A stretch of DNA of 55,738 nucleotides from an uncultured Dehalococcoidia bacterium. Lineage in GTDB: Bacteria; Chloroflexota; Dehalococcoidia; SZUA-161. The translations under genes and the position numbers were made by a program. Under the pieces are notes generated by a model. It had not been told where the DNA came from, searched no databases, and worked only from the letters and a program-made list of their open reading frames with translations. Shown in pieces: positions 18,050 through 49,355 of the stretch (its first letter is position 1; the number at the start of each line of letters is the position of its first letter). The DNA lies in assembly GCA_964524995.1 (NCBI GenBank), contig CAZGDV010000004.1:1-55738 (forward strand), written 5' to 3'.

Positions 18050-18080
18050 TTGACATGTCGCCGACCCGGTGATATACATT
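18050..18080 (+). promoter_or_regulatory. sigma70-type promoter candidate for the giant kinase
   Basis: TTGACA (18050-18055), then TATACA at 17 nt or TACATT at 19 nt spacing. Confidence 0.55.
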
Positions 18081-18201
18081 GTTCACCCTCCCCGCGATTC
18101 CTTCACATGTGCCACTCTGCGGAACCCCCTCCACTCCGCATTCCCAAGCCCAACCGCTCTATGGGTGCCCCACGCACGCTGCACTATCGAGGAGGCCGAC
18201 G

Positions 18202-21200: not shown

Positions 21201-24200
21201 CTACGCCGAGGTCAGCGGCATCAAGTCGAACTTGTCCGTTCGAGTGGACATCGCGGGAGCCCCCTCCTTCGTCATCGCCATGGGCTCGTTCACGACCTCG
21301 CAACCATGGCCCGAGGAGTGGGTGCCACGGCTCAGGATCCTCGGCGAGGTCTTTGCCAACGCCATCATCCGCAGGCGCACCGACGAAGCCCTCCGGCGCA
21401 GCGAGGAGAAGGCCCGAGGCGTCCTGGAGAGCGCGACGGAGATGATATACAGGCTCGATCTCCTCACGGGCAACTATGACTACGTCAGCCCCTCGGTCAG
21501 GTACGTACTGGGGATGGAGCCCGAAGACTACCTAGCAATGACCATCTGGGAAACGCGATTGCTCACCCACCCCGACGACCTTCCGCGCCTGGATGCCAAC
21601 GTCCTCAAGGAGCTTCTGGCCGACCCCAGGCACTCCGAGCTGCCTTCCGATACAGAGTACCGTATACTCAATCGCCAACGAGGTTACAGGTGGGTATGCG
21701 ACAGCAGGCGCATCGTCTGGAGCTCCGACGGCACGAGGCAACTCGCCGTCGTCGGCAGCCTCAGGGACATACACGACCGCAAGGAAGCGGAAGACAGGCT
21801 GAGAAGGAGCGAGGAGCTTTTCAGATCCCTGATCGAGAACGCCACGGACTTCATAGTCATCATTGACGCGGACGGAAAGGTGCGCTACGAGAGCCCCTCG
21901 GTCGCGAGACTGATCGGCTACGAGCCGGACGAGCGCGTCGGCAAGAGTGCCTTCGAGCATGTCCACCCCAACGATGTTCAGCGGGTCATAGACACCTTCG
22001 CGGCCTTGAGAGAGCAGCCAGGCGCGACGATGAGCATGGAGCTGCGCTTCGGGCGCAAGGACGGCTCATTCGCCTACGCCGAGGGGACAGGCCGTAACCT
22101 CATCGATCACCCTGCGGTGGAGGCCATTGTCGTCAACCTCCGCGACATCACCGAGCGCAAGCTGGCAGAGGCTCAACTCAAGCAGAGCGAGGAGAAGTAC
22201 CGCTCCTTCGTGCAGAATTTCGGGGGGGTAGCTTACCGGGGCTACACCGACTGGGGAATCGACTTCTTCCACGGCAAGGTCGAGGAACTGACCGGATACA
22301 CCGAAGACGAGTTCAAGAGTGGTGCCGTCAGATGGGACCAGATCATACATCCTGAGGACCTCCCCCACGTTGCATCTGATGTGTCCCAGACAATCGCGGA
22401 TAAGGAACCGTCTCATGCGAGGGAATACCGCATCATCCGCAAGAACGGTGAGATAGCCTGGGTCAGGGAGATCTTGCACATAATTGTCGACGATTCCGGC
22501 AACGCCAGCGGCGCGCAGGGCGTCCTGCTGGACATCACCGAGCGCAGGCTGGCTGAAGCTCAACTGAGGGAGAGTGAAGAAAAGCTCCGGCTCATTTTCG
22601 AGTCGGTGCACGAAGGCATTGCAGTGACAGACCTCGACGGCGTCGTAACCGAGTGCAACACCAGGATAGCCCAATTCCACGGGTCATCCTCCAAAGATGC
22701 GATACTCGGGCACTCTGCGCTTGAATTGATTGCACCGCGCGACCGTGATCGGGCGAAGGCCAATATGCAATCGAGACTCGCGGGGCACCCCGCTGAGCGA
22801 AACGAGTATGCAGTCCTCAGAGCCGACGGCACTGAATTCGCCTCCGAGCTGATCTCCACCGTCCTCAGGAATGACCTCGGTGATGCCATCGGCCTCCTGG
22901 CCACCATCCGCGACATCAGCGAGCGCAAGAAGGCTGAAGACGCTCTGCGCGCGAACGAAGATAGATATCGCAACCTGTTCAACAATGCACAGGTGGGTTT
23001 GTTCCGCTCCAGGATCAGCGACGGCAAGTTCATCGAGTGCAACGACCTGTTCGCCGAGATGGTGGGGTATCCCAGTCGTGAGGAATGCCTCGCTGACTTC
23101 GTTGCGTCCGAGCACTACGCAGATCCGGCCGTCCGGCAACGGATGCTGGCGGAGATAGCCGATCGTGGTCAAGTCAGGAGTTTCGAGGCCCTAGTAACAC
23201 GCGCCGACGGCTCCCCGTTCTGGGTCAGCTACTCCGCCCACATCTACCCCGAAAAGGGATATATCGAAGGCGCGGGAATCGACATAACCGAACGCAAGCT
23301 CGTGGAGGATGCGCTGCGCCGGAGCGAGCACAAGTACCGCACTCTTGTCGAGAGCATGCATGATGGTCTCTGGGTCATCGACCAGAAAGCCCGGACGACC
23401 TTTGTCAATCCTCGCATGGAAGAGCTTCTCGGCTACGACCCCGGCGAGATGATAGGGAGACACCTGTTCGAGTTCATGGACGAGCATGACAAGGCGATCG
23501 CCAAGATCAACCTCGCGCGCAGGCGGCAGGGGATTGCGGAGCAGCATGACTTCAAGTTCATTCGCAAGGACGGAACAGCAATCTGGGCAACCCTCGCGAC
23601 CAATCCCCTGTTCGACGAAAGCGGAAGCTACATCGGCGCGATGGCCTGCATCGCTGACATCACCGAGCGCAAGCGGGCCGAAGAGGCGATCCGACATAGT
23701 GAGGCGAGATTCAGGGAGCTGGCCGACCTGCTTCCTCAGGCCGTGTTCGAGACGGACAATGAGGGCAATCTGACATTCTTGAACCAGAAGGGCATGGAGC
23801 TATCGGGCTATTCGGTCGAGGATATCGACACGGGCCTGAACTGTCTCCAACTCGTCGTCCCCGAGGAGCGCGAGCTCGCACTGTTGAACCTGCAGCTGAT
23901 GATCCAGGGAGCGGAATCAGTTGGCACCGAGTACACAGCCCTCCGGAAAGACGGCTCGACATTCCCCGTCGTACTCTACTCGAGCACCATCTCGAGGGAA
24001 GGTCAACCCGTAGGGCTCCGGGCCGTTGCGATGGACATCACTGAGCGCAAGATGGCCGAGGAGGCCCTGAGGCGGAGCGAGCAGCGGTTCAAGGCGCTCA
24101 CCGAGAACGCCCTGGATGTGATCGTCGTAGTGGGTGCCGATGGCAAGGTGGCCTACGAGAGCCCTTCAGTGGAGCGAGTGATGGGCTACACGCCGGAGGA

Positions 24201-27200
24201 TGTCGTTGGACGCAAGGGTTTCGAATACCTGCACCCTGAGGACGTGCCCGCTGCCGCCGAGATGTTCGCAGACCTGCTGACGCATCCCGGCGAGACCCTG
24301 ATCACTGAGCTGCGCGTGCATCACAGGGACGGCTCTCTCCGCTTCGTGGAGGCTGTGGCGAGGAACCTCCTCGATGACCCAGCTGTTTCCGGCATCGTTG
24401 TCAACTTCCGCGACATCACCGAGCGCAAGCAGGCGGAGCAGCTCATTCTCTCCAGAATGCAGATGCAGCAGCTCATTGCCGAGACAACATCACACTTCGC
24501 AGGCCCAACATGTGCCGATATCGACCGTACCATAACAGATGCTTTAGGCCGGATTGGCACGTACATCGGAGTCCATCGTATCTATATCAACATCTTCGCG
24601 AAAGACCAAACCTCCATTGCGATTACCCACGAGTGGTGCGACTCCGACATCGAGCTATTTGGATTCCAGGCATTCTCGCTCGCACCATTCCCTTGGGCAT
24701 TGTCCAAGCTGAACAAAGGGGAAAGCATTCGCGCCGATACACTCGATGAACTGCCGCAAGAGGCGTCCAACGAGAGAAGTCTGTGGCAGAGCACCGGCGT
24801 GAAGTCCATAATAGGCATTCCTCTCATCGTGCAGGGTTCCTTGATAGGTTTCATGGGCTGTAGCGACGAGCGAAACGGGCGTACTTGGCAAGATGACGAC
24901 ATGCATATCCTGACAATCATCGGCCAGACAATGGCGAATGCCATCCACCGCATTCAGGCCGAGGAGGCACAGCGAGCGAGCGAGGAAAAGCTGAGATCAT
25001 TCATGGACTCGGCTACCGACAGCTTCTTCCTCTGGGATTCGGAGTTCAACATGATGGACATCAATGAGAGCGCGGCACAGCGGTGGGGCGTGCCCAGGGA
25101 AGAGTTGATCGGGAAGAACATGCTGGAGTTCTCGCCCGAACTGAAGTCCACGGACAGATACAAGAAGTATCTTGAGGTTCTCTCAACCGGGAGCAGCTTT
25201 GAGTCCGAGTTGCTCATCAATCATCCCCGATTGGGGTCCAGATGGCACTCTTTTAGAGCTTTCCGGGTGGGCACTGGTCTGGGCATTATCTCGACCGACG
25301 TCACCCGCCGCAAGGAGAATGAGGAGGAGTTGGACCGCTACCGACAGCACCTCGAGGAGCTGGTCCAGGAGAGGACAATCGATCTGCAGGAGTCCAACGA
25401 AGAGCTACTCGAACAGGCCTCAGAGCGCATCAAGGCCCAGAAAGAGGTGCAGCGCGAGAAAGACAAGGCACAGAAGTACCTCGACATCGCCGCCGTCGTG
25501 CTCCTGGTGATAGACACAGACGGCACCGTGAGCCTGATCAACAGGCGCGGTTGTGCCATCCTCGGATACAACCAGGATGAGATTCTGGGCAGGAACTGGT
25601 TCGACAGCTTCGTCCCACCGTCCGTGGCAGGTGACTCCAGGGCGATGGTCAAGAGGTTCCTCGAAGGCGAGGGGGCCTACGGCAGATACGAAGGCTGGGT
25701 GCAGACTCGAAGCGGCGAGCGGAGGAACATCCTCTGGCATGGCGTCGTGCTGCGCGATGACGATGGCACGGCGCTGGGCGTCCTGGCATCCGGTGAGGAC
25801 GTCACAGAGCATCGGAGGGCTGAGAGCCTGAACACGGCCCAACGCGATCTGGCTGTGAAACTCAGCGCAACCGACAGACTCGATGAGGGTCTCCACCTCT
25901 GCCTGGAAACAGCACTGGAGGTATCCGAGATGGACTCGGGCGGCATCTACCTCTTGAACACCGCCGATGGTTCGCTCGACCTGGCTGTACACACGGGTCT
26001 GTCTCCAGCCTTCGTAGACGCCGTCCGCCACTACTCGCCCGACTCTCCAAGTGCTCGGCTAGTCGCCTCTGGGAAGCCCGCCTACACAAGCTATCCTGAA
26101 GTCGGGGGAATCGTAGACGATGTCAGGCGAGAAGAGGGGCTGCATGCTATAGGCATAATCCCTGTGACCCACCTCGGCCAGGTCATTGGTTGCCTGAACA
26201 TCGCTTCGCACCAGCTTGAAGACGTGCCTGACCACGCCCGCGTCGCGATCGAGACCGTAGCCGCCCAGATTGGCAGCGCCGTGACCCGCCTGCAGGCCGA
26301 GGAGGCGCTCAGGGACAGCGAGCAGGCGTTCCATGCCATCACAGAAGCGATTCCAGTACCCGTGGGCATATCGGCCAGGCCCGGCGGTACCATACTCTGG
26401 GAGAACACCCACCTCAGCCCCCTGTTCGGCCTGCCGCCAGGCAGCATGGCTGGCCGCACGACGACTGATTTCTTCACCAGCTTGTCTGATAGGGAGTTCG
26501 TACGCACGGCGCTGGACCGCTGCGGAAGGCTAGACATGTACGAGTTCGAAGCAAGGAGGGCAGACGGCACTCCGGTATGGGTAATGGCCTCGGTACAACC
26601 CATGGTGTTCCAGGGAGAAGAGGCGAGCATCACGGGGTTCTACGACATAACGAAGCGGAAACATCTGGAGGACGAACTCCGAGACCTCTACGATCAAGAG
26701 CGGGAGCTGAGTCAACGGCTGGAGGAGGAAATCAACAGACGCATAGAGTTTACCAGGGTACTGGCACACGAGCTCAAGACGCCTCTCACACCAGTGATGA
26801 GTTCGAGTCAGCTCCTCGAAGCCATGCTCGAAGACGAAGCTGCATCGAAGTTGGCCCAGAACATAAGCCGTGGCGCTAGCAATCTCAACAGAAGGATCGA
26901 CGAGTTGCTCGATCTTGCACGAGGAGAGATCGGCACTCTGCGGCTCAAAGAGGAGATCATCGACCTGCGGCAGCTCATCAGGGAAGTGATACATGATATG
27001 ATTCCTCTTGCCGCCGAACGTGACCAGACGCTGACCACGCGAATATCGAGAAAGCTGCCGATCGTAAGGGGGGACTCGGACAGGATACGGCAGATTCTGT
27101 TGAACCTGCTCAACAACTCCATCAAGTTCAACCAGCCGGGGGGTCAGATCTCTATACTCGCCTCATCCGACGATTCAGGCGTCACAATAGAGGTAAGGGA

Positions 27201-27477
27201 CACTGGAACCGGCATCCCGAAAGAGGACCTGCCAAGGCTGTTCGAGCCGTATTCGCGCCTGGAAGGCGACAGAGAGCACCTCAGCGGTCTGGGCCTCGGT
27301 CTGGCGCTGTGCAAGACCCTAGTTGAGCTTCACGGCGGCGAGGTATGGGCGAGAAGCCGTCCCGGCAGGGGCACCACGATCGGCTTCTCACTACCCGTCG
27401 GCACGCGTGAGGGTGTGGAGAGGAAGAAACGAAGCAAGTCAGGAGGTAGTCGTGAGGGCTCTAATAGTCGAGGATGA
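18202..27477 (+). CDS. Giant cytoplasmic sensor histidine kinase HK3 (~3090 aa; 18 PAS, 3 GAF, HisKA, HATPase)
   Basis: ATG 18202 after GAGGAGG; repeated PAS/PAC units ending D(I/V)TERK; three GAF-like segments; AHELKTPL, NLLNNSIKF, DTGTGI, GLGLGL; no TM helix seen. Confidence 0.93.
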   Translation: MEHQGRIPDTNADPPPNDDFGHWSGLTKQFFLASPDGMILCDSELAVVAANPAATSLLGLPDDLAASARKPTLTELVPSLGRTPHRERLRRIMETGKPANFHVMLTTPDNGRDRHLYIVGFKVNCGIGLVVREPSNVFAGRRPAETADDAAEWSALLENSASPMIVIGEQGDLVACNDAMLSFLESSRKDVLGANIQQFATPDSGRRVLGQLTSLLHSGGTLEIELQVNHRTKMLELTLTAGTWRDEPVLVGAGTDATNRHRAEESARAAESRYKALFDNPLLMVFLNDENGTILEANPAAMERMGYTESDLGHVNFVDLLHPDDRERVFARMASIIAGGSMEYRVELRLLTRTGELMWIEMYGFVIERGEGTYLGLGVASEITARKRAEAALAESEEQYRLISETSMDGIYQVDSSGHMVYCNTALTAMLDYERDEMIGRHFSMFVPESEVPRVQEQVSIVLRGESLNAEVTVRDKHGNLMPVFFSAVPNRSNGEITGLTGILKDVTSLKRTEAALAESERRFRLFMDHLPGVAFINDANGFTVYGNRRIHEAYGLEPGEYEGHRLEDVNPDYAHTIRQQDSRVLTEGITLQFEETIPDQSGPREWLTTKFPIPSEGEASLVGGVAIDITDLRRLEKKLFRQQRRFQSLIEHSSDVVCLVGANGELRYISPAVEGVLGYRLDDLAGKRPLDFVHPEDSARAADSLALVSNTHSTTLPVDIRVRHVDGSWRTLEVSGTNHIDDPAIGGIVVSFRDVTERRQAEEALRESEIKYATLVQQAKDAVIIEQDELLVFVSQGAESITGYAVSEIQGKHYLDLVVTEHEEIGKATYRFLLAGKIPAATYPSRILRKDGTTRDIELSVSTIEYRGRPALMAVVRDVTERNRMERSLRGLMEFEKLVSELSAAFVNVPSEEVDAHIEEGLRRIVEHLGLDRSTLLEFSDDKSELRVAYSYARPGAERSPAVSVSNYLRWYTDRLRQGDVVRWHRIEDLPEEAELERLYAEVSGIKSNLSVRVDIAGAPSFVIAMGSFTTSQPWPEEWVPRLRILGEVFANAIIRRRTDEALRRSEEKARGVLESATEMIYRLDLLTGNYDYVSPSVRYVLGMEPEDYLAMTIWETRLLTHPDDLPRLDANVLKELLADPRHSELPSDTEYRILNRQRGYRWVCDSRRIVWSSDGTRQLAVVGSLRDIHDRKEAEDRLRRSEELFRSLIENATDFIVIIDADGKVRYESPSVARLIGYEPDERVGKSAFEHVHPNDVQRVIDTFAALREQPGATMSMELRFGRKDGSFAYAEGTGRNLIDHPAVEAIVVNLRDITERKLAEAQLKQSEEKYRSFVQNFGGVAYRGYTDWGIDFFHGKVEELTGYTEDEFKSGAVRWDQIIHPEDLPHVASDVSQTIADKEPSHAREYRIIRKNGEIAWVREILHIIVDDSGNASGAQGVLLDITERRLAEAQLRESEEKLRLIFESVHEGIAVTDLDGVVTECNTRIAQFHGSSSKDAILGHSALELIAPRDRDRAKANMQSRLAGHPAERNEYAVLRADGTEFASELISTVLRNDLGDAIGLLATIRDISERKKAEDALRANEDRYRNLFNNAQVGLFRSRISDGKFIECNDLFAEMVGYPSREECLADFVASEHYADPAVRQRMLAEIADRGQVRSFEALVTRADGSPFWVSYSAHIYPEKGYIEGAGIDITERKLVEDALRRSEHKYRTLVESMHDGLWVIDQKARTTFVNPRMEELLGYDPGEMIGRHLFEFMDEHDKAIAKINLARRRQGIAEQHDFKFIRKDGTAIWATLATNPLFDESGSYIGAMACIADITERKRAEEAIRHSEARFRELADLLPQAVFETDNEGNLTFLNQKGMELSGYSVEDIDTGLNCLQLVVPEERELALLNLQLMIQGAESVGTEYTALRKDGSTFPVVLYSSTISREGQPVGLRAVAMDITERKMAEEALRRSEQRFKALTENALDVIVVVGADGKVAYESPSVERVMGYTPEDVVGRKGFEYLHPEDVPAAAEMFADLLTHPGETLITELRVHHRDGSLRFVEAVARNLLDDPAVSGIVVNFRDITERKQAEQLILSRMQMQQLIAETTSHFAGPTCADIDRTITDALGRIGTYIGVHRIYINIFAKDQTSIAITHEWCDSDIELFGFQAFSLAPFPWALSKLNKGESIRADTLDELPQEASNERSLWQSTGVKSIIGIPLIVQGSLIGFMGCSDERNGRTWQDDDMHILTIIGQTMANAIHRIQAEEAQRASEEKLRSFMDSATDSFFLWDSEFNMMDINESAAQRWGVPREELIGKNMLEFSPELKSTDRYKKYLEVLSTGSSFESELLINHPRLGSRWHSFRAFRVGTGLGIISTDVTRRKENEEELDRYRQHLEELVQERTIDLQESNEELLEQASERIKAQKEVQREKDKAQKYLDIAAVVLLVIDTDGTVSLINRRGCAILGYNQDEILGRNWFDSFVPPSVAGDSRAMVKRFLEGEGAYGRYEGWVQTRSGERRNILWHGVVLRDDDGTALGVLASGEDVTEHRRAESLNTAQRDLAVKLSATDRLDEGLHLCLETALEVSEMDSGGIYLLNTADGSLDLAVHTGLSPAFVDAVRHYSPDSPSARLVASGKPAYTSYPEVGGIVDDVRREEGLHAIGIIPVTHLGQVIGCLNIASHQLEDVPDHARVAIETVAAQIGSAVTRLQAEEALRDSEQAFHAITEAIPVPVGISARPGGTILWENTHLSPLFGLPPGSMAGRTTTDFFTSLSDREFVRTALDRCGRLDMYEFEARRADGTPVWVMASVQPMVFQGEEASITGFYDITKRKHLEDELRDLYDQERELSQRLEEEINRRIEFTRVLAHELKTPLTPVMSSSQLLEAMLEDEAASKLAQNISRGASNLNRRIDELLDLARGEIGTLRLKEEIIDLRQLIREVIHDMIPLAAERDQTLTTRISRKLPIVRGDSDRIRQILLNLLNNSIKFNQPGGQISILASSDDSGVTIEVRDTGTGIPKEDLPRLFEPYSRLEGDREHLSGLGLGLALCKTLVELHGGEVWARSRPGRGTTIGFSLPVGTREGVERKKRSKSGGSREGSNSRG

Positions 27478-28147
27478 CAAAGAGGTTGCCGACGGCATCT
27501 CGCTTCTGCTGCATTTCTACTGGCCCGAGGCTGAGCTCATGGTTACATCTCTGGGTAGGGAGGGAATCGAACTCACCAGAAGCGCGTATCCCGATATCAT
27601 CGTGCTGGACCTGGGCTTGCCTGACATAAGCGGCTTCGAAGCCCTGCGGGAGATACGACAGTTCTCCTCGGTTCCGATTATCATTCTCACCGTGAAGTCA
27701 GAGGAGTCCGACATTGTGAAAGGGCTCGAGTGGGGCGCGGACGACTACATCGTGAAGCCATACGGACAACTCGAGTTGCTCGCCCGGTTGAGAGCCAGGC
27801 TGCGCGACAAGAACCACCCGGCAGAGGCCAGCACACTTACTTTCGGCCCTTTGCGTCTCAACGCCGGGCATCGTGAGCTCCACTGTGGACAGAAAGAGGT
27901 CGATCTGACAGCCATCGAAGCTCACATCATGCATCATCTCATCAGAAGTGGGGGGCATGTGGCAACATACTCCAGCCTTGCCGAGGAAGTGTGGGGTGAA
28001 GACTACCCGGGTTCCCTCGACAGTCTGAGGGTCTACATTCGGCGTTTGCGGGAGAAAATCGAGGATGATCCCAGCCACCCCCAGATGATCCTGAACAAGC
28101 CAGGTGTCGGCTATTACCTATCACGGCACGCCAAGGCGCAACCGTGA
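27452..28147 (+). CDS. OmpR/PhoB-family response regulator RR1
   Basis: GTG after AGGAGG, overlapping the HK3 end by 26 nt; LIVEDD, LDLGLPD, DYIVKP; winged helix SLRVYIRRLREKIEDDP...GVGY. Confidence 0.95.
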   Translation: MRALIVEDDKEVADGISLLLHFYWPEAELMVTSLGREGIELTRSAYPDIIVLDLGLPDISGFEALREIRQFSSVPIIILTVKSEESDIVKGLEWGADDYIVKPYGQLELLARLRARLRDKNHPAEASTLTFGPLRLNAGHRELHCGQKEVDLTAIEAHIMHHLIRSGGHVATYSSLAEEVWGEDYPGSLDSLRVYIRRLREKIEDDPSHPQMILNKPGVGYYLSRHAKAQP

Positions 28148-28219: not shown

Positions 28220-28303
28220 TTAACGGCTTGTAAGCCCTTTCTTAGCCCTTTCTTATTCTCAGCAACCTCGCTTAATGCCTGTTTAACCGCCTGGGCTTAA
28301 ACT
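28220..28303 (+). promoter_or_regulatory. 4+2 array of 11-bp direct repeats plus -10 box (copy 1)
   Basis: ttaacggcttg/taagccctttc/ttagccctttc/ttattctcagc, 8-nt gap, ttaatgcctgt/ttaaccgcctg, TAAACT at 28298 (offset 78). Confidence 0.8.
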
Positions 28304-28314
28304 TCCTACCTGGG

Positions 28315-28587
28315 ATGCTCGACACGATCCTGCAACCCGTGGAAGCGCAGCAGCAAACATGCTGGTTGTCCCCTCTGACAAGGAGTCCCCTCTCAGTTCA
28401 AATAGGCAAGTACCCATGGGTATCACCGGATCAGCTTCGCAGCGAGTCACCAACAGCGAGCCGATCGGTCGCCCAGAGTCCCAGAACCGGTCCGGCAGTG
28501 TCGAAGGGTATCGATAGGTATCAGACAACACGGATGATCAGGAAGCTCAGGGGCACTCCACCGACGACTTGCCCCGGATTGGCGTGA
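28315..28587 (+). CDS. Possible 90-aa low-complexity ORF or leader, coupled to MarR
   Basis: Starts just after the predicted TSS of copy 1 with no SD; its TGA overlaps an in-frame GTG of the MarR gene (GTGA, 28584-28587); no family recognised. Confidence 0.3.
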   Translation: MLDTILQPVEAQQQTCWLSPLTRSPLSVQIGKYPWVSPDQLRSESPTASRSVAQSPRTGPAVSKGIDRYQTTRMIRKLRGTPPTTCPGLA

Positions 28588-29171
28588 CGATGACCGCAAA
28601 AGGCATGAGCGAGAGCGACCGCGGTGTCCTCTCACGGCTGGTGCAGGCCGGAGACGTCGCGTACAGACTCAAGAGGAACACGCTGGCGCAGGTAGGTATT
28701 TCCGCCCTGGAGAGCGAGGTGCTGCTCATGCTCAATGGCGCGGAAGGCCCCATCGACACTCCCAGTCTGTCGCGAAGGATGCTTCTGGAGCCAAGGGCAC
28801 TTCGCAGCCTGCTGCGTCGCATGGAGAGCAAGGGGCTTGTATCGCTATGCAAGTCCGGACCCGAGAAGAACGCAACCCAGGCCGTCGAGGCGACAGAGGA
28901 AGGCCATCTGGCCTATTCGAAGTCTTTGGAACTCAACAACATGTACGGCGTACTGTCATGCCTGTCCTCAGAAGAGAAGGAACAGCTTGAGGTGCTCCTG
29001 AGAAAACTCCTTCGAACTTCGCTATCCACTCTCGGGATCGGCAGGCTGTTTCATCATGCCGAACTGGTTGGGGAAGTCCCGCCCCCCACAAGGCGGCGCG
29101 AGTCCCGAGCCCGTGCAGCCAGATCCGGCAGAGGCCAGTCGCCAGAGAGCACTTTGTGCAGACAGCAATAG
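28584..29171 (+). CDS. MarR-family transcriptional regulator (Dehalococcoidia-like subtype)
   Basis: GIS..E..VL..L....GP.....LSR.MLLEP.....LLRRME.KGLV...ATEEG..AY...LSCLS.EEKEQL; start uncertain (28569, 28584 or 28590). Confidence 0.85.
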   Translation: MTMTAKGMSESDRGVLSRLVQAGDVAYRLKRNTLAQVGISALESEVLLMLNGAEGPIDTPSLSRRMLLEPRALRSLLRRMESKGLVSLCKSGPEKNATQAVEATEEGHLAYSKSLELNNMYGVLSCLSSEEKEQLEVLLRKLLRTSLSTLGIGRLFHHAELVGEVPPPTRRRESRARAARSGRGQSPESTLCRQQ

Positions 29172-29224: not shown

Positions 29225-29992
29225 ATGGCCAAGGAAGCGTTGGACATACTGATCATCGAGAACGATCCAGATGTCGTAGAGGCAGTGGCCCTGGTGCTCC
29301 ACATGCGTTGGCCCGACGCGAGGATTGCGGCCACCGATTCCGGTGCAGCTGGCATCGAACTGGCGGGAAGCGATGAAGTGGATGTGATCATACTCGATCT
29401 GGGTCTTCCCGATATTGATGGCTTCGACGTAATCAGGGAGATCAGGGCGTTCTCGGCCACCCCCATAATAGTACTCAGCGTGAGGTCCGGAGAGTCGGAC
29501 ATCGCGCGGGCTCTCGACGAGGGAGCGGATGACTATATAGCGAAGCCCTACTCCCCGCTTGAGCTGATAGCGCGGCTTAGAGCACGGGTCAGCGATAGGG
29601 ACGAGCACGCTGCTTGGGGGCCGCTCTCCTACGGCCAACTCACACTTGATCCCCTCAAGCGTGAGTTGGCCGTAGGAGACAAGTCGGTGAACCTCACAGT
29701 TGTCGAACTGCAGATCATGCGCCAGCTCATCAGAAGGGCTGGTGGCATTGTTCCCTTCCTTGCACTCGCCGAGAGCGTTTGGGGTGAAGAGCACCCTGGG
29801 GCGCTCGACAGTCTCAGAGTATATATCCGGCGCCTGCGGAAGAAAGTCGAGGACGACCCCAGCTACCCCAAGCTCCTGCTTACGAAGACGGGCGTGGGCT
29901 ACTACCTGGCCAAGCCAGCCCTGAACCACGTCAAGTGCAGCGCCGACGCGCTGCACGTAGTGCTCAGGAAATCACACACCGTTACCCCGTGA
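29225..29992 (+). CDS. OmpR/PhoB-family response regulator RR2 (orphan)
   Basis: ILIIEND, LDLGLPD, DYIAKP; winged helix SLRVYIRRLRKKVEDDP...GVGY; no adjacent kinase. Confidence 0.94.
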   Translation: MAKEALDILIIENDPDVVEAVALVLHMRWPDARIAATDSGAAGIELAGSDEVDVIILDLGLPDIDGFDVIREIRAFSATPIIVLSVRSGESDIARALDEGADDYIAKPYSPLELIARLRARVSDRDEHAAWGPLSYGQLTLDPLKRELAVGDKSVNLTVVELQIMRQLIRRAGGIVPFLALAESVWGEEHPGALDSLRVYIRRLRKKVEDDPSYPKLLLTKTGVGYYLAKPALNHVKCSADALHVVLRKSHTVTP

Positions 29993-30036: not shown

Positions 30037-30120
30037 TTACCGAGTTCTCACCGGTTTCTTAGTATCGTTTAATGCCGAACCGCGTCTGTTAATCGGCCTC
30101 TTATCGGCCCACTCTAGACT
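30037..30120 (+). promoter_or_regulatory. 4+2 array of 11-bp direct repeats plus -10 box (copy 2)
   Basis: ttaccgagttc/tcaccggtttc/ttagtatcgtt/taatgccgaac, 8-nt gap, ttaatcggcct/cttatcggccc, TAGACT at 30115 (offset 78). Confidence 0.8.
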
Positions 30121-30240: not shown

Positions 30241-31200
30241 ATGACTAGACGGGGGCTCAAGCTGACGAGGCGACTCATACTGAGTGTAGCCGCACTTGTG
30301 CTGGTTATAGTTCTTCTCACGTTGAATATCCGTGTGGCACCGGTTTCCGTCGAGCCTCTGGTGGCATTGGGCTATGGCTATGGGGGAGGCATCGTCATCG
30401 TTCCCCCGACTCCTACAGCGACTCCCTTGCCCACCGCGACACCGGCGGCTACCAGTTCCCCCACACCCACAGCGACGCCGGCGGAATCGCCCGGCCCCAG
30501 CCCCACTGTAACCCCGGCCCCTACGCCTACTCCTACCGGCGTCACACCTTCGCCAACGCCAGCGGAACGGCCTCTCGTGACCGAAGACCTCGTGGGCAGG
30601 GTCAGTGACCTCGGCTTCGCGCTGGAAGACATCGAGGTCAGGACTGACGACGGTCAGCTGGTCCTGCGGATAGCCGAGTTCACTCATATGGAAACCCAGG
30701 ACGGTGTGCCGCCCAGCTACCTCGATGTCTCGGAGGTCATCGATGCACCAGCGATGCCACCCAATCTGGTGCTGATCGGCAATGCCTACAACTTGCATGG
30801 TGACCAGGCAGAATTCGATCCGCCGATCGAGCTGTCGCTGACATATGACCCTGCAGAACTCCCAGACGGCGTCGACGAAGCCGATCTGGCCATTGCATAC
30901 TACGACAGCGAGGCTCAGGCCTGGGTCTTTCTGGAATCCGTAGTCGATACCACGTTGCATACAGTCACTTGTAAGGTGAGGCATCTTACGGTGTTCGCAA
31001 TACTGGGAACGAAAGCGCAAGTGCCCACGCCTACTTCGCCGGTGCCCACGCCAACAGCAACGCCTGCGCCACCATTCAACGTGTGGATCGTCATCGGCCC
31101 CATACTGGCCCTCCTCGCGCTCGCAGGAGTAGCCTACTACTTCCTTGTCGATGAGTACACCAGGAGGAAGTGGATGAAGCGTCTGCTGAGGCGAGCGTAG
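30241..31200 (+). CDS. Membrane-anchored surface protein: N-terminal signal/TM, Pro/Thr-rich linker, ZU5/GPS-like beta domain, second PT linker, C-terminal TM and basic tail
   Basis: TRRLIL then a hydrophobic stretch; (PTPT)n linkers; FDPPIELSLTYDP..LP.GVDE.DL.IAYYD...W..LESVVD...TV...V.HLTVFAIL; TM followed by RRKWMKRLLRRA. Confidence 0.85.
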   Translation: MTRRGLKLTRRLILSVAALVLVIVLLTLNIRVAPVSVEPLVALGYGYGGGIVIVPPTPTATPLPTATPAATSSPTPTATPAESPGPSPTVTPAPTPTPTGVTPSPTPAERPLVTEDLVGRVSDLGFALEDIEVRTDDGQLVLRIAEFTHMETQDGVPPSYLDVSEVIDAPAMPPNLVLIGNAYNLHGDQAEFDPPIELSLTYDPAELPDGVDEADLAIAYYDSEAQAWVFLESVVDTTLHTVTCKVRHLTVFAILGTKAQVPTPTSPVPTPTATPAPPFNVWIVIGPILALLALAGVAYYFLVDEYTRRKWMKRLLRRA

Positions 31201-31331
31201 CGGAGGCCGAGGAGCGGGGCGGCTCACTTCGAGAAAGCAGGAGCGGCGGAGTGAGACTCAAACGGCACGGAGAGGGATCGAAGCCTTAGGCATGGCTCCA
31301 GGCGCCCGCCGGTCAATAGTCCTAGGCATGA

Positions 31332-31469
31332 GACATTCTCGGAGCGCTTCCGCCGAATGTCCTCTCCTTTCCCACCAATGGCTTGTCCTCCGAGTCCGAA
31401 GGGATCGGCTCGGGGGACAAGCCCCTAGGCCACCCGACGACCTGGGCCCTTTCCCGAGGCAGAGTCGTC
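31332..31469 (+). other. Cluster of three GC-rich stem-loops between the surface-protein and GT-C genes
   Basis: GACATTC..CGGA-GCGCT-TCCG..GAATGTC (31332-31361); ~19-bp stem 31380-31423; GACGAC/GTCGTC stem 31436-31469; no U-tract. Confidence 0.6.
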
Positions 31470-31499
31470 CCTTGGGCTTCAAGGTCTGGTCCATGTGAG

Positions 31500-32969
31500 A
31501 TGGCGACGTTAGCTCCATCCGGCAGCTTGCCCAGTCGGCTCCCCAAGCTCGTCATTGTTGCCATACTGATACTGGCCGTTTTCATGGCCAGTATCCCGCA
31601 CTGGAACTACAGCTACCCACTCCACATAGACGAGTGGTGGCACCTCGGTGACTCGGTGAGTCTTGCAGAGACAGGGCATGTTCCGTTCCCCAACTTCTTC
31701 GAAGCCGGTACACACGTGTGGCCTGACCGAGAGTTGGGCTTTCACCTCCTCCTCTCGCAAATCAAGATATCAACCGGCGCCTCTTGGCTGGTCTTGCCCC
31801 TCATCCTGCCCTCCCTGATCCTGGCAATCCTGGTCGTGCAGTTATATGCCCTGGGCAGACGCGAGGGTTGGGGCCTCTGGGCAGCCTTCATAGTCGCCCT
31901 TATCCCCACAACCACCAGGTTTTTGGGGCCGGCTTTCCTGGTTCCCGTAGCGGTCGGACTAGTCTTCATTCCCGCGACCATGTTCGTCCTGCGGAATCTC
32001 ATGAATGACTGGAAGGGTCTGGTCATTCTGTTGGTGATGTTCACCTCACTCATGCTGATCCACCCACCCAGTCTTGTGGCCCTGAGCGCCATAGTCGCAG
32101 TCCACTCGTTGGTACGCGCGATACCCGTAGGAGGGAGGCAAGATTCGAGGGCGCGCCGAACAGCGTTGGCGATGGCACTACTGGGTTCGACCTACATCAT
32201 CATGTGGGTCTGGGCACCAGATCTTGTCAGGCTCATCGTGGAGGAGGGGCTCGACCCCAACGCACACATATCGCTCCCTCCCATCAGCAACGCCCTATCC
32301 CAATTCGGATACATCCCGTTTGCCCTGGCCGCCCTCGGCACGGCAGTGATTGCCTATCGTGGAAACAGGGACGACTGGGCGCTTGTACTCTCCGTGATGC
32401 TGCTGCTGGGTTTTCAGACCATTTACCCGATCCTATACCTGGGCCCCGACATCGTATATGAGAGGGGTTGGCTCTACATATATGTGCTGACCGCGATGCT
32501 CGCGGGCATCTCTATGAGACACGTCTGGCAGTGGACGAGTACCGCTTTCAGCGGCAGGATGTGGGCACTGGGGGCATCCAGGGCATTGGCCATACTAGTG
32601 CTGATCGGCATGGTGTCCCAGAGCATTTACTCGCATCTGCGCGAACCCTACTATCAGGTCATCGACGACAGCACATACGAGGAGTTCCTGTGGATCAGGG
32701 ACAATGTGCCCAGCGAATACGACGTAGCCCTCGTGGACACCGGACTGGCCTGGGCGTTCGCCACCGTGACTGAGAAGGCAGTGTATGCTGCGGAAGTGGC
32801 TCCAAACTTCCATGAGAAGGGCCGTGCCGCCATGGAATTCCTGGCTGAGGGAGCCGAAGACACAGAATGGTTGAGGGAAAACGGGATAAGAATCGTGTAC
32901 ACGTCGGAAGATGTGAACAACGAGGACCTCTCCAGAATACGGAACAACACGTATCTTCTCCTAGACTGA
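31500..32969 (+). CDS. Polytopic membrane protein, GT-C-fold glycosyltransferase-like
   Basis: First external loop YPLHIDEWWH carries the acidic DE pair typical of GT-C enzymes; about 11-12 TM helices and a C-terminal soluble domain; track start 31383. Confidence 0.7.
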   Translation: MATLAPSGSLPSRLPKLVIVAILILAVFMASIPHWNYSYPLHIDEWWHLGDSVSLAETGHVPFPNFFEAGTHVWPDRELGFHLLLSQIKISTGASWLVLPLILPSLILAILVVQLYALGRREGWGLWAAFIVALIPTTTRFLGPAFLVPVAVGLVFIPATMFVLRNLMNDWKGLVILLVMFTSLMLIHPPSLVALSAIVAVHSLVRAIPVGGRQDSRARRTALAMALLGSTYIIMWVWAPDLVRLIVEEGLDPNAHISLPPISNALSQFGYIPFALAALGTAVIAYRGNRDDWALVLSVMLLLGFQTIYPILYLGPDIVYERGWLYIYVLTAMLAGISMRHVWQWTSTAFSGRMWALGASRALAILVLIGMVSQSIYSHLREPYYQVIDDSTYEEFLWIRDNVPSEYDVALVDTGLAWAFATVTEKAVYAAEVAPNFHEKGRAAMEFLAEGAEDTEWLRENGIRIVYTSEDVNNEDLSRIRNNTYLLLD

Positions 32970-34300
32970 AGGAAAGTGCGATTACGCCTATCAAATTTCG
33001 GACAAGTTCACCCGCTGCGCGGCTGATATCTCAGGAACGGTTCCTTCTTGTAGCTGCAGCTGTCGGCTATGCATTCGGCTACCTGTACCTCGTCTATATC
33101 GGCCGTGAGCTGGGCCCTCAGGACTTCGGCACATTCGGCTCTCTGTTCGCTGTCTTCTACATCGCTTGTCATATGGGACAGGCTGTCAGACAGGCCATCG
33201 CCCGGAGAGTATCCGAAGTCAATGCTAGGGTGGGACGCGAAGCGGCCCTGTCGACATACTCCCGGCTGGCATTCAAGCTAGGTCTTCTGTGCACAATCCC
33301 CACCGCGGCGGCAATAGCCGGATCCCACCATATCGGATCGTTCTTCCATGTCAGTCACACCGGCCCAGTGATCCTCTTGGGACTGTCCATTTCTATAGCC
33401 TTGATCCTTGACGTGCTGCTGGGATTGCTGCAGGGAATGCAGAGGTTCATGGCACTTGGGGTCAGCGGGTTTCTAGTCGGCCAGGGGTCCAAACTGGTGA
33501 TTGCGGCCCTCTTTCTCTGGGCCGGCTGGGGCCTGTCTGGGGCTGTCGGTGTTCTCCTGGCGTCGACGGCACTGGCTGCAGTCGTCGGACTGGCACTTGT
33601 TCGAAAAGACCTGCGAGGAGCACTTCGAACGCCCTCTTATAGCGATTCCGGTGTAACCGCAGTCCTGCTCCCCTCCACGTTCCTGGTCCTTTTCCTGGCC
33701 ATCCCGACCAGCGCCGACGTCATGCTCGTCTCGCACTTCTTCGACAGCAATGACGCCGGGGTCTACAATGCTGCCGCCACTCTCGGGAAGGTGGTTATCT
33801 TTCTGCCGATGGCCGTCTCGTTCGTCCTGCTGCCGAAAGCAGCGGAGAGCCATGCGCTGGGATTGAGTTCGAGGAAACAGCTGGCAAGGAGTCTAGTGCT
33901 GGCGGGTGCGCTGTCGGGTGGGGCCGCACTGATATGCTGGGCACTGCCCGATATGGTTGTGGGCATGTTCTTCGGTCAGGCCTACGTTGGGGCACAACAG
34001 ATCTGCGGCCTGTATGCGGCCGCCATGCTGCTCGTTTCGCTGAACTGCGTTCTGATGCACTATGGCCTGGCGACTCACAACCTTGCCTTGATGCTCTGGG
34101 CAGACACGATCAGCATCGCACAGGTCGTGGCGATTGCCATGCACCATGACTCACTGCTTCAGACCGTCATGGTGCTCCTTATCGGCAATGCCGTTCTGTT
34201 CGGGTCCAGCTTGCCATTAGCGCTCGTGCTCGAAGGGAAAGGAGTTGGTAAACCCCGTGAGGCAGAACCCAGTCCCGCCGAAGCTACTGTTGCACGCTGA
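32867..34300 (+). CDS. Oligosaccharide/polysaccharide flippase (Wzx/MOP-like)
   Basis: GR.LGP..FG.F..L motif, about 12 TM helices, D..LV.HFF....AG.Y.AA..LGK...F.P; start codon unresolved. Confidence 0.85.
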   Translation: MVEGKRDKNRVHVGRCEQRGPLQNTEQHVSSPRLKESAITPIKFRTSSPAARLISQERFLLVAAAVGYAFGYLYLVYIGRELGPQDFGTFGSLFAVFYIACHMGQAVRQAIARRVSEVNARVGREAALSTYSRLAFKLGLLCTIPTAAAIAGSHHIGSFFHVSHTGPVILLGLSISIALILDVLLGLLQGMQRFMALGVSGFLVGQGSKLVIAALFLWAGWGLSGAVGVLLASTALAAVVGLALVRKDLRGALRTPSYSDSGVTAVLLPSTFLVLFLAIPTSADVMLVSHFFDSNDAGVYNAAATLGKVVIFLPMAVSFVLLPKAAESHALGLSSRKQLARSLVLAGALSGGAALICWALPDMVVGMFFGQAYVGAQQICGLYAAAMLLVSLNCVLMHYGLATHNLALMLWADTISIAQVVAIAMHHDSLLQTVMVLLIGNAVLFGSSLPLALVLEGKGVGKPREAEPSPAEATVAR

Positions 34301-34316
34301 AACGGAGGTGCCACAG

Positions 34317-34904
34317 GTGGGGCCCCTTGGCAGCGATACCATGCCACCGAGGAGGCAACCGGCGAGCGCTGTATTCCTGGACAGAGACGGCACGATAATG
34401 CGGGACGTGCACTACTGCCGCGATGTGAGGAATGTCGAGATACTGCCTGGTGTCGCACAGGGAATCAAGTTGCTCAACGACAGCGGGTTCAGGGTGGTTG
34501 TGGCAACGAACCAGTCCGGCATCGGCCGTGGTCTTCTCGATGAAGAGGTACTGAGGAGAATACACCAGCGCATGCTGCTGCGGCTGCTCTGGGAGGGTGC
34601 CATAGTCGATGCGATCTACCACTGCCCTCATGGTCCAGACGATAGCTGCGAATGCAGGAAGCCGAGGGCAGGGCTCCTCCGGCGGGCGGCGCAGGACCTA
34701 GACCTGGATCTCGAGAGGTCGTTCATGGTCGGCGACAGCCTGAGGGACATCGAGGCCGGGCGGGAGGCCGGTTGCCGAACGGCGATCGTGTGTTCCGACC
34801 CATACGCCTGGGAGGACCAGGGGGCGAGACCCGACTTTATCGGACACAGTCTCCTCGATGTGGCCGTGTGGATCATAGGGGCCAGGGTAGCGGGCTCAGC
34901 CTGA
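34317..34904 (+). CDS. gmhB: D,D-heptose 1,7-bisphosphate phosphatase (HAD IIIA)
   Basis: AVFLDRDGTI, VATNQSGIGRG, YHCPH....C.CRKP, SFMVGD...DIEAG..AG; GTG 34317 after GGAGG. Confidence 0.92.
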   Translation: MGPLGSDTMPPRRQPASAVFLDRDGTIMRDVHYCRDVRNVEILPGVAQGIKLLNDSGFRVVVATNQSGIGRGLLDEEVLRRIHQRMLLRLLWEGAIVDAIYHCPHGPDDSCECRKPRAGLLRRAAQDLDLDLERSFMVGDSLRDIEAGREAGCRTAIVCSDPYAWEDQGARPDFIGHSLLDVAVWIIGARVAGSA

Positions 34905-35510
34905 GGCTACGACAAGCTGGTTCAGGCCGAGCTCGAAGGTCTTGTAGCACTCGATTCTGAAGTGGCCATCCCCGGCAACTATTTCTTGCAGCGTCCGCTC
35001 ATTGTAGTTCGCCTGGTGTGGGCTGTACATCTCCAGTTCCTCGTGCTTGACCCCGAGCAATCGCTTGAATGCCCTAACGAGCCTGTCCCCAGCTGCAGAA
35101 GGTGTCGTGATGACCAGGTGGCCACCGGGTTTCAGCAATGATCGGCATTGCTTGAGCACCACGGTAGGATCGTGGAGATGCTCTATGACGGCGAGCAGCA
35201 CGATGGTGTCGAACTCCGATCGCACCACATCGAGGAGATTGCCATCCTGCTCGATATCGATACAATGAAATTCCCATTCCGGCTTCTGCTCACGCAACTC
35301 CCGTATCACGGCCTCCTGGATGTCTATCCCCACATATCTCTGGCCTCCGGCCAAGTAGTCTGCGAGCGAAGACTCACCGCCACACCCGATATCGAGCACA
35401 TCACCCTTGAGCCATGGTCTGACTTGAGCGCATCGCTTTCGGCTCAGGTACCGGGCGATAGTCCTCGCGTAGAGACCGGTCGCCAACCTGGTGTATCTGC
35501 CGTATGACAC
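34896..35510 (-). CDS. Class I SAM-dependent methyltransferase
   Basis: VLDIGCGG, YVGIDI, FDTIVLLAVIEHL, LKPGG.L.ITTP; probable GTG start at 35510 directly after the upstream stop (the track extension to 35762 overlaps another gene). Confidence 0.88.
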   Translation of the reverse strand: MSYGRYTRLATGLYARTIARYLSRKRCAQVRPWLKGDVLDIGCGGESSLADYLAGGQRYVGIDIQEAVIRELREQKPEWEFHCIDIEQDGNLLDVVRSEFDTIVLLAVIEHLHDPTVVLKQCRSLLKPGGHLVITTPSAAGDRLVRAFKRLLGVKHEELEMYSPHQANYNERTLQEIVAGDGHFRIECYKTFELGLNQLVVASG

Positions 35511-35511
35511 T

Positions 35512-38500: not shown

Positions 38501-38658
38501 ACGGCGGTGAGCCCAAAGAACCCCAGGTAGACCCACAAAGGTGGCCAACCTACAAGAGGCCTGGCCCGGAGCCACACAAGTGCTGAGCTGCATGCCGTGC
38601 GTGCAGCCGCGAGACGGTGCGGGCTTCTTCGCTTCTTCCTTGATTTCTTGCGGCTCAC
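35512..38658 (-). CDS. GT-C (TMTC/PMT-like) membrane glycosyltransferase fused to CBM4/9-like and ConA-like extracellular modules (1048 aa)
   Basis: RFQPL....Y..YH......H..N..LLF.L...LF.......AIAW, E.....P TMTC-like pattern over about 11 TM helices; C-terminal NLL.N..F motifs and a Y..LNGEL beta-rich segment. Confidence 0.72.
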   Translation of the reverse strand: MSRKKSRKKRRSPHRLAAARTACSSALVWLRARPLVGWPPLWVYLGFFGLTAVLYAALLSDLPRADHLMFMSNFREGGMSMADLKRSLFFEFFGSDKRFQPLAFPVVYLQWKVFGTNFLMYHLTTIGVHALNATLLFLLVRRLAPSALFSLFIAALFLTAATHLDAIAWTVHTYVLLQVSCILLAVLFLLEWQRSSRPALLYLSYLFIFIQMFFTEAGVVFPLLLFAGTLVLWRHNRATMGDAVRRSAILTIGVYAVFLLAFGVFAILDPRSMPGELLSSGNILRAIWGTIIHFGSSALLHNTVYSSEIVVDDMVYFVPITWPSLSPTSGTAIGLVIGNTVAVIAVVTLLLQLRVPPSGRRSLVLLVALGGLAFSFLLLLVRPTSYAISQSRYAYIPTLTVVSLLAILLAQRFRPDLAGLAGKNDPGLGRFRKVAIVLAIGCLVVLSMGRTMTGAQEVASARADTNGVYYAAREFVAEPENAGARLFVSASTYPSHEKLAWGADIIPDLFLSSQAVTKNLSEATHVLREGPIIEQAPMRSMPRIEFAGRGGNGEFYQDLSDQASELAGRLVTLNVTARAALCEAVAPFIWSDVGGYVMGDFFTAAEELECREVTIAIPQDAKAVRVGLAFTRTTLAWVSELDFREVTSNTGNLLPNSDLKRWSAGGGPFTDAGDMWADGWLIDLRGESEMAVSRVVEQSGETIALAEYSHDDESYLVCNVPNPDSLIGHTATLSAMLRADAGKAVRLSMEWDREGGAWSDFHPGDGNWHLMSLAATVPEDGVDFLTLSVVLDRDCSVQIKSPTLMTTLSRPGNLLENPTFQGWDEDSLPVSAGPVAMEVADGWWQSVEGESALSSWVVEVAPPAATANPDDFSVRFGLMPTGWPGEPLEMFGFTSATRENPEGWFLRLLYGVGADSPQAGYPRLELGHREGTSEQVVFCSRPLPTETRMNHYVVGRDHGVFYVILNGELVEKRADNTGEAFRDMELELGEVYSYVYPYYQHPVPYFAYTHVQVGESEMSVADKPLGHVFGEISFNVYGFMPYHVSLGW

Positions 38659-38664
38659 TGCAGA

Positions 38665-44598: not shown

Positions 44599-44671
44599 AG
44601 TTACAGAAAGACCATTGAGCTCGGTTGAAGCCGAGTTCGTTTGACTGGATAGTGAGAGCCGCTTTGACTGC

Positions 44672-45283
44672 TCAAATACGTGCTGCCAGGAACTCGTCTA
44701 GTTCTGCGCTGACAACGACATCATACAGACGAAAGAAGTCGTCCATGGCATTCCGAAGCTCTGCCGCTATAACTCGTCCCGTCTCCGTATAGAATCTGTC
44801 GTAGAAGAAGCCGATGTAGTTTCTTGCTTTCCTCATCGCTCCTTGGACTTGCTTGCCGTCGTACACCATGCGATAGCCGAACACCCGGGCGAAGCCGAGC
44901 GGCCCGACCGACTGGAGCTTGTCGGCGTCCCAGAGTACCTCGGCCTCCCTGGTGAGCTTGGGCAAATCGTTGGCATGCTGAGATATCGCGTAGCAGACCT
45001 GCTCGATGAAGGCCTCAGGCGCCCGTATGCTCTCCAGGAAGGCTCCGGCCTCCCGAGCCCCGATCGCGGCATGCTCTGCGCCCACGCCTTTGGCTATGTC
45101 ATGGAGATACGCCGAGATGACGCTTATCTCTTCATCAGCACCTTCCCTTCTCGCCAGCCACCTCGATATCTCCACCGTCAGCTCTACGTGCTCCATAGTG
45201 TGATCGAAATCCTGGTCTTTGTGCCGCTCGCGAGCGTACTCGCGGATTCTCTGGACTTGCTCCAGGCTAAGAACGAACGGCAT
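44672..45283 (-). CDS. HD-domain phosphohydrolase
   Basis: H..EHV...AYLHDIAK...H...GA...DADKL motifs; ATG 45283 after GGAGG (the track extension to 45454 overlaps the upstream gene). Confidence 0.88.
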   Translation of the reverse strand: MPFVLSLEQVQRIREYARERHKDQDFDHTMEHVELTVEISRWLARREGADEEISVISAYLHDIAKGVGAEHAAIGAREAGAFLESIRAPEAFIEQVCYAISQHANDLPKLTREAEVLWDADKLQSVGPLGFARVFGYRMVYDGKQVQGAMRKARNYIGFFYDRFYTETGRVIAAELRNAMDDFFRLYDVVVSAELDEFLAARI

Positions 45284-49336: not shown

Positions 49337-49355
49337 GGTCGGTGTTCATTCTCCT

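Follow-up and report, generated by a model that had tools for sequence, protein, structure and literature searches.

A 55,738-nucleotide stretch of DNA from an uncultured Dehalococcoidia bacterium (contig CAZGDV010000004.1 of assembly GCA_964524995.1, positions 1 to 55,738 of the forward strand; hereafter the window) was analyzed for a promoter-like element that is present in three of its intergenic regions. The element, six 11-bp repeats and a -10 box in a common layout of 85 bp, was read directly from the sequence at 28220 (+), 30037 (+) and 54999 (-). Each site is probably an activator-dependent promoter of the sigma-70 type, the upstream 75 bp of which would serve as an array of half-sites for one or both of two response regulators, RR1 and RR2, encoded in the same locus. 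Every sequence-level feature of a pho-box-like class II promoter of the OmpR/PhoB family that was tested here was found, namely direct repeats of about one helical turn, a half-site of the family type, a pair of units in place of the -35 element and a linked cognate regulator. At this level, the array is real and mechanistically ordinary, probably a pho-box-like binding array of a two-component regulator. A literature search, with most subscription journals outside its coverage, returned no earlier description of the binding site of this regulator clade or of its architecture of four plus two units. Within the coverage of this search, the regulator-promoter pair is previously undescribed but mechanistically conventional, with a rigid geometry that can be recovered from sequence across uncultured lineages.

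Layout and conservation of the three arrays

The geometry reported in the initial annotation of this DNA was found at all three sites: 11-mers beginning with T-N-A stand at offsets 0, 11, 22 and 33 (block A), followed by an 8-nt gap, TTAA at offset 52 and a -10 hexamer at offset 78. The weaker sixth unit described there also exists in each of the sites, in register at offset 64 (T-N-A-n-C-G) and not at offset 63 as had been proposed; units 5 and 6 are referred to here as block B.

Site 1 starts at 28220 on the plus strand and reads, with the gap between slashes, TTAACGGCTTG TAAGCCCTTTC TTAGCCCTTTC TTATTCTCAGC / AACCTCGC / TTAATGCCTGT TTAACCGCCTG GGCT TAAACT. Its block A extends over 28220–28263 (units at 28220, 28231, 28242 and 28253), its block B over 28272–28294 (unit 5 at 28272, unit 6 at 28284), and the -10 box TAAACT occupies 28298–28303, with a predicted start at about 28310. 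Site 2, also on the plus strand, starts at 30037 and reads TTACCGAGTTC TCACCGGTTTC TTAGTATCGTT TAATGCCGAAC / CGCGTCTG / TTAATCGGCCT CTTATCGGCCC ACTC TAGACT; the four units of block A cover 30037–30080, units 5 and 6 cover 30089–30111, and the -10 box TAGACT lies at 30115–30120 (predicted start ~30127). Site 3 runs on the minus strand from 54999 and reads TTAACTCATTC TAATCCGTTTT TCATGGTCATC TTATTCCGTAT / GCAGTGTG / TTAACCCGCTT TTCAGCGTACG AGTC TAGACT, with block A at 54956–54999, block B at 54925–54947, the -10 box TAGACT at 54916–54921 and a predicted start near 54909.

When the 18 units of the window were compared, T at position 0 and A at position +2 were invariant (18/18 each), T was present at -2 in 15 and C at +4 in 11. 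The unit motif is better given as tTcTtAnC(C/G), which corresponds to a WalR-type hexamer at positions -2 to +3; the hexamers observed include TCTTAA, TGTAAG, TCTTAG, TCTTAT and TGTTAA, among others.

In an ungapped three-way alignment, 35 of the 85 columns at offsets 0–84 were identical, versus 7 of 106 in the flanks, which is the level expected by chance. The block is thus sharply bounded, from the first unit to just past the -10 hexamer. The pairwise identity of the sites was 53–62% inside the block and 24–29% in the flanks, and the conserved columns recurred with an 11-bp period at the same positions of each unit. These values support the earlier view that the spacing is conserved and does not reflect a recent duplication.

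A composite IUPAC pattern, allowing up to two mismatches, matched only the three sites in the window and gave no match in 100 dinucleotide shuffles; the spaced motif is not as common in shuffled DNA by this test, which was post hoc. Additionally, a 12-nt matrix was built from the six units of a single site and applied with the fixed 0/11/22/33/52/64 geometry. The other two sites ranked second and third of approximately 111,000 positions in every split. No further full array, four-unit array or pair of units at 11 or 12 bp was detected in the 55.7-kb window outside the three sites, and no array was present in the ~9 kb past its right end. The regulon defined by this locus, as it had been proposed, holds for the ~64 kb of the source genome covered here (the window and the ~9 kb beyond its right end); as a genome-wide claim it is unproven. 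Neither relevant competing canonical promoters nor relevant predicted terminators were found in the three intergenic regions.

The array beside related regulator genes

RR1 (27452–28147, +; 231 aa in the JGI call) is an OmpR-type response regulator whose stop codon lies 73 bp before site 1, and the stop codon of its paralog RR2 (29225–29992, +) lies 45 bp before site 2. Both proteins contain the Pfam domains Response_reg and Trans_reg_C only; they are 55% identical and share an identical recognition-helix stretch, LDSLRVYIRRLR. Among solved structures, the DNA-binding domain of RR2 is closest to YycF/WalR/VicR (E ~2e-15), and the best match of the full-length protein is KdpE. The nearest relatives of RR2 (46–57% identical) belong to the Chloroflexota, some of them being named Dehalococcoidales. 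The adjacent regulator is regarded as the binder because of its linkage to the array, because direct 11-bp repeats correspond to the dimer binding mode of OmpR/PhoB proteins, and because of the WalR-like domain. No simple pattern linked the Y/H residue of the recognition helix to the TTA or TAA cores when the clade alignment was set against the sites.

Two assignments of these regulators were considered and rejected. An orthologous WalR/VicR system does not agree with the best full-length match, which is KdpE, or with the linked kinases, which have PAS/GAF or CHASE4 architectures; judged from sequence, the kinship of RR2 with WalR appears to be a resemblance in DNA recognition and not membership, and orthology is not established. 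A promoter class dependent on Streptomyces antibiotic regulatory proteins (SARPs) was discarded since the regulators have a receiver and lack the bacterial transcriptional activation (BTA) domain, according to Pfam.

The comparison with other lineages was moved to the regulator clade, as the first gene product after site 1, MarR-like protein 1, has no detectable relatives. A metagenome scan with the clade alignment yielded 80 loci, 15 of them with a regulator that shares 46% or more identity with RR2; the remaining 65, with more distant OmpR-family regulators and about three times more DNA than the clade loci, were used as the control set. In the contigs of the first three relatives, the top match of the window-trained matrix fell between genes, directly past the regulator gene, and the units there read TTGTAAC or TTTTAAC. 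The array geometry was observed at the clade loci L010–L013, L017, L019–L022, L095–L097, L099 and L100. In 13 foreign loci (regulators 46–57% identical), the array lies 45–215 bp past the regulator stop codon on the same strand, with TGTAAC-like units at 0/11/22/33, the break, units at 52/64 and TAnnnT at 78–79.

A matrix scan of relatives, as had been suggested, gave an enrichment near clade regulator genes. With the matrix trained on the window only, L017, L019 and L020 scored 28–30, which corresponds to 3/15 clade and 0/65 control loci (p=0.0055). With the combined matrix, scores above 20 were reached by 9 of 19 clade loci and by none of the 65 controls (Fisher p=2.5e-7). Conversely, a matrix built from the foreign sites, containing no window sequence, returned 28220+, 30037+ and 54999- as the top three positions of the window, with scores of 37.0, 17.2 and 12.6; the next best position scored -14.7. 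Moreover, among six held-out clade loci that were never used in training, five (L095, L096, L097, L099 and L100) carried the array with the -10 box at offset 78, located 74–210 bp after the regulator stop codon (positional chance for the first three, 3.8e-7).

Compilation of 15 sites placed the -10 box at offset 78 in 11 and at 79 in four, the hexamers being TAGACT (five times), TAAACT, TATATT, TATAGT, TATACT, TAAAAT and CATAAT. Block A showed TAA or TTA cores at 0, 11, 22 and 33, followed by 8–9 non-conserved nucleotides; unit 5 was always (T)TAA(T/C) at 52–53, and unit 6 stood at 63–65. Columns conserved in at least nine of the 11 ungapped sites numbered 25/85 inside the array and 0/45 in the flanks, with a mean pairwise identity of 50% inside and 28% outside. 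The foreign unit yTTGTAACC equals the WalR consensus TGTWAH, as in TGTAAC-CCACT-TGTAAC of L019. The order of elements in L022 (array-RR-array-MarR-RR) is the same as in the window. Site 3 and the first array of L022 are not downstream of any response regulator gene. The earlier interpretation as an OmpR/PhoB-type array replacing the -35 element is supported, at the level of sequence comparison, by the same geometry beside genes of the same clade, by its absence from the 65 control loci, by the WalR-like DNA-binding domain and by the -35 hexamers, which matched at best in 3/6 positions at 13 sites when spacers of 16–19 bp were tried.

Proposed mode of action and alternative explanations

According to the proposed mechanism, phosphorylated regulator dimers would bind head to tail on TGTWAH-like hexamers 11 bp apart. 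Units 5 and 6 would fill the position of the missing -35 element and recruit RNA polymerase via sigma region 4, and the four upstream units would load two more dimers, adding cooperativity. The -10 box at offsets 78–83 would put the start near offset 90, about 7 nt past the box; measured from this predicted start, units 5–6 would span approximately -38 to -16 (-40 to -17 by the WalR-type hexamer) and block A approximately -90 to -47. The last hexamer ends 10 bp before the -10 box, which matches the distance in the E. coli pho box. The step from unit 4 to unit 5 is conserved at 19–20 bp, which is 2–3 bp less than two repeats of 11 bp. With 10.5 bp to a helical turn, units 5 and 6 lie at phases of 17 and 34 degrees with the break, versus 86 and 103 degrees in an unbroken array, and the former values fall within the range spanned by block A; the break would accordingly line up the six protomers along a single face of the helix. 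A spacing tolerance of no more than 1 bp fits the strict spacing to core elements of PhoB-activated promoters (PMC10294691).

In the circuit envisaged, the giant PAS/GAF kinase encoded before RR1 would phosphorylate RR1, which would activate site 1 and, with it, MarR-like protein 1 and RR2. RR1 and RR2 would then act on site 2 (a Pro/Thr-rich surface protein and a flippase) and on site 3 (a heptose-like sugar pathway, a glycosyltransferase and a giant LamG protein). That site 1 would drive both the MarR-like gene and RR2, as had been assumed, agrees with the gene order, the lack of a predicted terminator and the same wiring in L022. The feedback loop that had been attributed to this copy is better described as a cascade; a loop would arise only if RR2 binds site 1, which is plausible from the identical recognition helices. 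From these sequence features we infer binding, activation and not repression, the start sites, what the break does and how RR1 and RR2 share the work.

Several points weigh against this interpretation. Co-location cannot tell RR1 from RR2, nor can it exclude co-binding by MarR-like or HTH_17 proteins. Since the combined matrix was trained on its own positive loci, its contrast is circular in part; the matrices free of this circularity give weaker contrasts that point the same way. No array stands near the regulator gene in the held-out locus L098 or in six further clade loci whose flanks were long enough. In L011, L095 and L022 unit 1 is degenerate, so that block A shows just three clear units; in L010, unit 6 is missing and the -10 box lies correspondingly nearer. 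The picture of six protomers is therefore not universal. Finally, the units of the window often read TCTTAN and not TGTWAH, with C for G at the second position of the hexamer; they appear to be diverged versions of the clade consensus.

The break itself admits a more elaborate explanation, which is not the expected one but deserves some weight: the fixed 4+2 break may define a distinct "split-hexamer" mode of activation and be reserved for a second partner (the alpha C-terminal domain of RNA polymerase or another regulator), or the array may be the hitherto undescribed cis-element of the abundant PAS-kinase/regulator pairs. With a second partner, RR1 and RR2 would co-occupy the two blocks in the window, integrating two signals. 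As a cis-element, the array may serve the adjacent genes of cytoplasmic PAS-kinase/regulator pairs in Dehalococcoidia and other Chloroflexota; if true, the regulons of uncultured members would be predictable from sequence.

Repression by the bound regulator, with the polymerase occluded and the genes off when the kinase is active, is unlikely. Units 5–6 would cover -38 to -16, where a bound protein can block the polymerase; OmpR/PhoB-family regulators are dual according to the position of the site (PMC10294691), and a PhoP repression complex has been described (PMC11825685). However, with no usable -35 at the 13 sites (at most 3/6) there would be little basal promoter to repress, and the distance from unit 6 to the -10 box is fixed within 1 bp, which is a signature of contact between activator and polymerase (PMC10294691) that occlusion does not need.

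It is quite improbable that the array is an operator of the MarR-like or nearby HTH_17 proteins, with the response regulators binding at other places. Site 1 is followed by a MarR-like gene, the paralog of which is divergent from site 3; a MarR gene follows the L022 array, and HTH_17 genes recur in L010, L013 and L094. By contrast, most array loci (L011, L012/L013, L017, L095–L097, L099 and L100) have no nearby MarR gene, whereas a response regulator gene is present in all array loci. MarR dimers bind short palindromes (PMC13390414) and the arrays are direct repeats, with no inverted repeat shared among the three window regions. Furthermore, MarR-like protein 1 has no detectable homolog in 5.8 billion proteins, yet the array is widespread.

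Hardly any credit was given to the possibility that the three sites are a diverged duplicated promoter, or phased or bent T-rich DNA resembling an UP element, with no dedicated regulator. The 53–62% identity of the window copies and the T-rich tracts phased at 11 bp are in its favor; nevertheless, the conserved columns are periodic with the unit, unlike neutral decay, and more than 10 other lineages carry the array, with different intervening sequence, each time next to this regulator clade, and other OmpR-family genes lack it. Least probable of all is an action as RNA, as a structured 3' untranslated region on the mRNA of the regulator or as an element of a 5' leader, which the usual position directly downstream of the regulator gene could suggest: the fold z-scores of five sites were 0.13, 0.24, -2.77, 0.77 and -1.14 with no shared helices, no Rfam family was matched, site 3 and the first L022 array do not follow a regulator gene, and the block terminates in a hexamer resembling a -10 box. 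An origin as plasmid iterons or as a mobile element was ruled out, as in each copy the -10 box lies upstream of a correctly oriented gene and there are neither terminal inverted repeats nor a rep gene.

Gene context and comparison with known systems

The window has a GC content of ~58% and is not a natural-product cluster; it carries genes resembling those of type IV pili and several PAS histidine kinases. The giant cytoplasmic PAS/GAF histidine kinase, an open reading frame (ORF) of 3132 aa at 18079–27477 (+), contains at least 13 PAS domains plus GAF domains; three more kinase/receiver proteins are encoded in the window (5015–8137, 7765–8589 and 8567–10126). The giant protein is presumed to be the cognate kinase of RR1 because the 3' end of its gene overlaps the start of the RR1 gene. 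A tRNA gene (3955–4026, +; 72.6 bits) lies between a hydantoinase-like gene and the first pilin-like gene, and was the only match of an Rfam scan of the window.

The first gene after site 1 encodes MarR-like protein 1 (28590–29171, +; 193 aa). Its predicted leader (28310–28589, +) is unusually long, ~280 nt; it matched no Rfam family, and no small ORF with a convincing start stands out in it. The first array of L022 likewise precedes a leader of ~200 nt. No homolog of MarR-like protein 1 other than itself was found among 5.8 billion proteins, a scan of the genome collection returned only distant MarR proteins, and the protein remained below the Pfam MarR_2 cut-off (20.7 versus 27 bits). It is a fast-diverging MarR relative, as shown by a paralog in the window and a true MarR at the equivalent position in L022. 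This paralog, MarR-like protein 2 (35% identical, E=6e-20), is encoded divergently from site 3 (55265–55738, +) and runs off the window; a second layer of control by this protein is possible. A canonical-looking promoter (TTGAAA-17-CATAAT, 55141–55169) is located upstream of its gene. The -10 box of site 3 lies within a perfect 10-bp palindrome, AGTCTAGACT (54916–54925, -), that could be an operator for a MarR-like protein; TCTAGA occurs at site 2 (30113–30118, +), and no such palindrome is present in site 1 or in the foreign sites.

The transcription unit after site 2 (30241–34904, +) encodes four products: a 319-aa Pro/Thr-rich membrane-anchored protein, a 489-aa unknown protein, a Wzx-like flippase and a HAD phosphatase. 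Site 3 is followed by a long run of minus-strand genes (34896–54883, -), for which a single transcript is not assumed. These include a SIS/GmhA-like protein, an HldE-like kinase/nucleotidyltransferase and two epimerases, which make up a heptose-like nucleotide-sugar pathway, together with an FAD oxidoreductase, a GT2 glycosyltransferase, a split transketolase, a B12-radical SAM protein, an HD protein, a 1977-aa LamG protein, a 1048-aa unknown protein and a methyltransferase. At 44672–48513 (-), the N and C halves of the transketolase are separate genes accompanied by the B12-binding radical SAM protein and the HD-domain protein, a combination that suggests an unusual branched or C-modified sugar and not a plain heptose. 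Past the window (L094 1–8903), an HTH_17 protein, a 1212-aa PAS kinase, a receiver-HD protein, a 449-aa sigma-70-family protein and a cyclase/AAA/TPR protein are encoded.

Other genes recurred near the regulator clade. A protein of 83–86 aa belonging to no Pfam family is the first gene product after the array in three lineages (L011 4110–4361, L014 1354–1614 and L095 11105–11356; 59% identity between L011 and L014) and is probably a recurrent direct target of the clade. DUF2807, a putative adhesin head domain, is encoded downstream of the array at L017 5291–6226, L096 12055–12336, L097 11224–12150 and L100 7351–8277, and these four lineages keep the order PAS-kinase/RR/array/DUF2807. Small HTH_17 genes of the excisionase/MerR-like type (L010 2577–2915 and 5427–5651, L013 4089–4262, L094 7848–8096) and receiver-HD (HD_5) genes (L010 6235–7371, L012 1596–2729, L094 2939–4078) were also detected. 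That both kinds recur beside regulators of this clade, in contigs not related to one another, points to a larger conserved module for signalling.

Gene regulation in the Chloroflexota is almost unexplored experimentally, most members being uncultured. A promoter architecture that is defined by sequence, cross-validated and tied to one large response regulator clade makes its targets readable from genomes and metagenomes; those seen here are surface glycan and glycoprotein operons, DUF2807 proteins, the conserved ~85-aa protein and further regulators. In the Dehalococcoidales, two-component control of adjacent operons has been proposed with the DNA sites unknown (PMC13390414). The motif is a concrete lead there, as the clade includes this order. 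Moreover, six half-sites and a break held within 1 bp across deep divergence offer a natural test case for how many OmpR/PhoB-type protomers act per promoter, and why.

The core binding regions of B. subtilis PhoP consist of four TT(A/T/C)ACA repeats with 11-bp periodicity. The present arrays resemble them: in each case about four half-sites in tandem, for two dimers, recur every 11 bp on the coding strand in place of a -35 element. To our knowledge, no separate proximal pair after a conserved break has been described for B. subtilis PhoP, and the lineage and the regulon are different here. As in the E. coli pho box, two 11-bp repeats of the TGT(C/A)A type stand on the non-template strand in place of the -35 element (PMC10294691); the sites of PhoB recovered by chromatin immunoprecipitation (ChIP) include TGTAAC half-sites, and PhoB-activated promoters need strict spacing to the core elements (PMC10294691). 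The arrays depart from the E. coli promoters by an extra tetrad of units upstream, held at a constant distance; RR1 and RR2 are not orthologous to PhoB, and the targets concern surface glycans, with no phosphate-related genes.

The half-site and the 11-bp spacing of the foreign arrays match exactly the WalR/YycF/VicR boxes of Firmicutes, whose footprinted consensus is TGTWAH-N5-TGTWAH, with VicR footprints that also include TCTAAT and TCTTAC half-sites (PMC4168254). In contrast to the arrays, WalR sites are single pairs at variable positions on either strand, and the WalRK pair, an essential cell-wall system, has its kinase in the membrane, whereas the kinases here are cytoplasmic PAS proteins. 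The Streptomyces SARP promoters (AfsR, ActII-ORF4) also place OmpR-type domains on 11-bp repeats that overlap the -35 region and the spacer and keep a short, constant distance to the -10 box, the afs box being located at -40 to -19 (PMC10936776); RR1 and RR2 differ from SARPs in carrying a receiver and no BTA domain, that is, in being two-component regulators.

The predicted six-protomer occupancy has a structural counterpart in PhoP of Mycobacterium tuberculosis, for which cryo-electron microscopy resolved tandem assemblies of two, four or six protomers bound to one to three PHO boxes, with a proximal dimer that displaces the contact between sigma region 4 and the -35 element (PMC11825685). 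The arrangement proposed here is like that of the 2PhoP-, 4PhoP- and 6PhoP-TAC (transcription activation complexes), with head-to-tail dimers on direct repeats and up to six protomers, here as a prediction. It differs from them in belonging to a Chloroflexota clade with a WalR-like domain and a TGTAAC/TCTTAN half-site, in the 4+2 split by a conserved extra 8–9 bp, and in the position of the array, usually right after the regulator gene.

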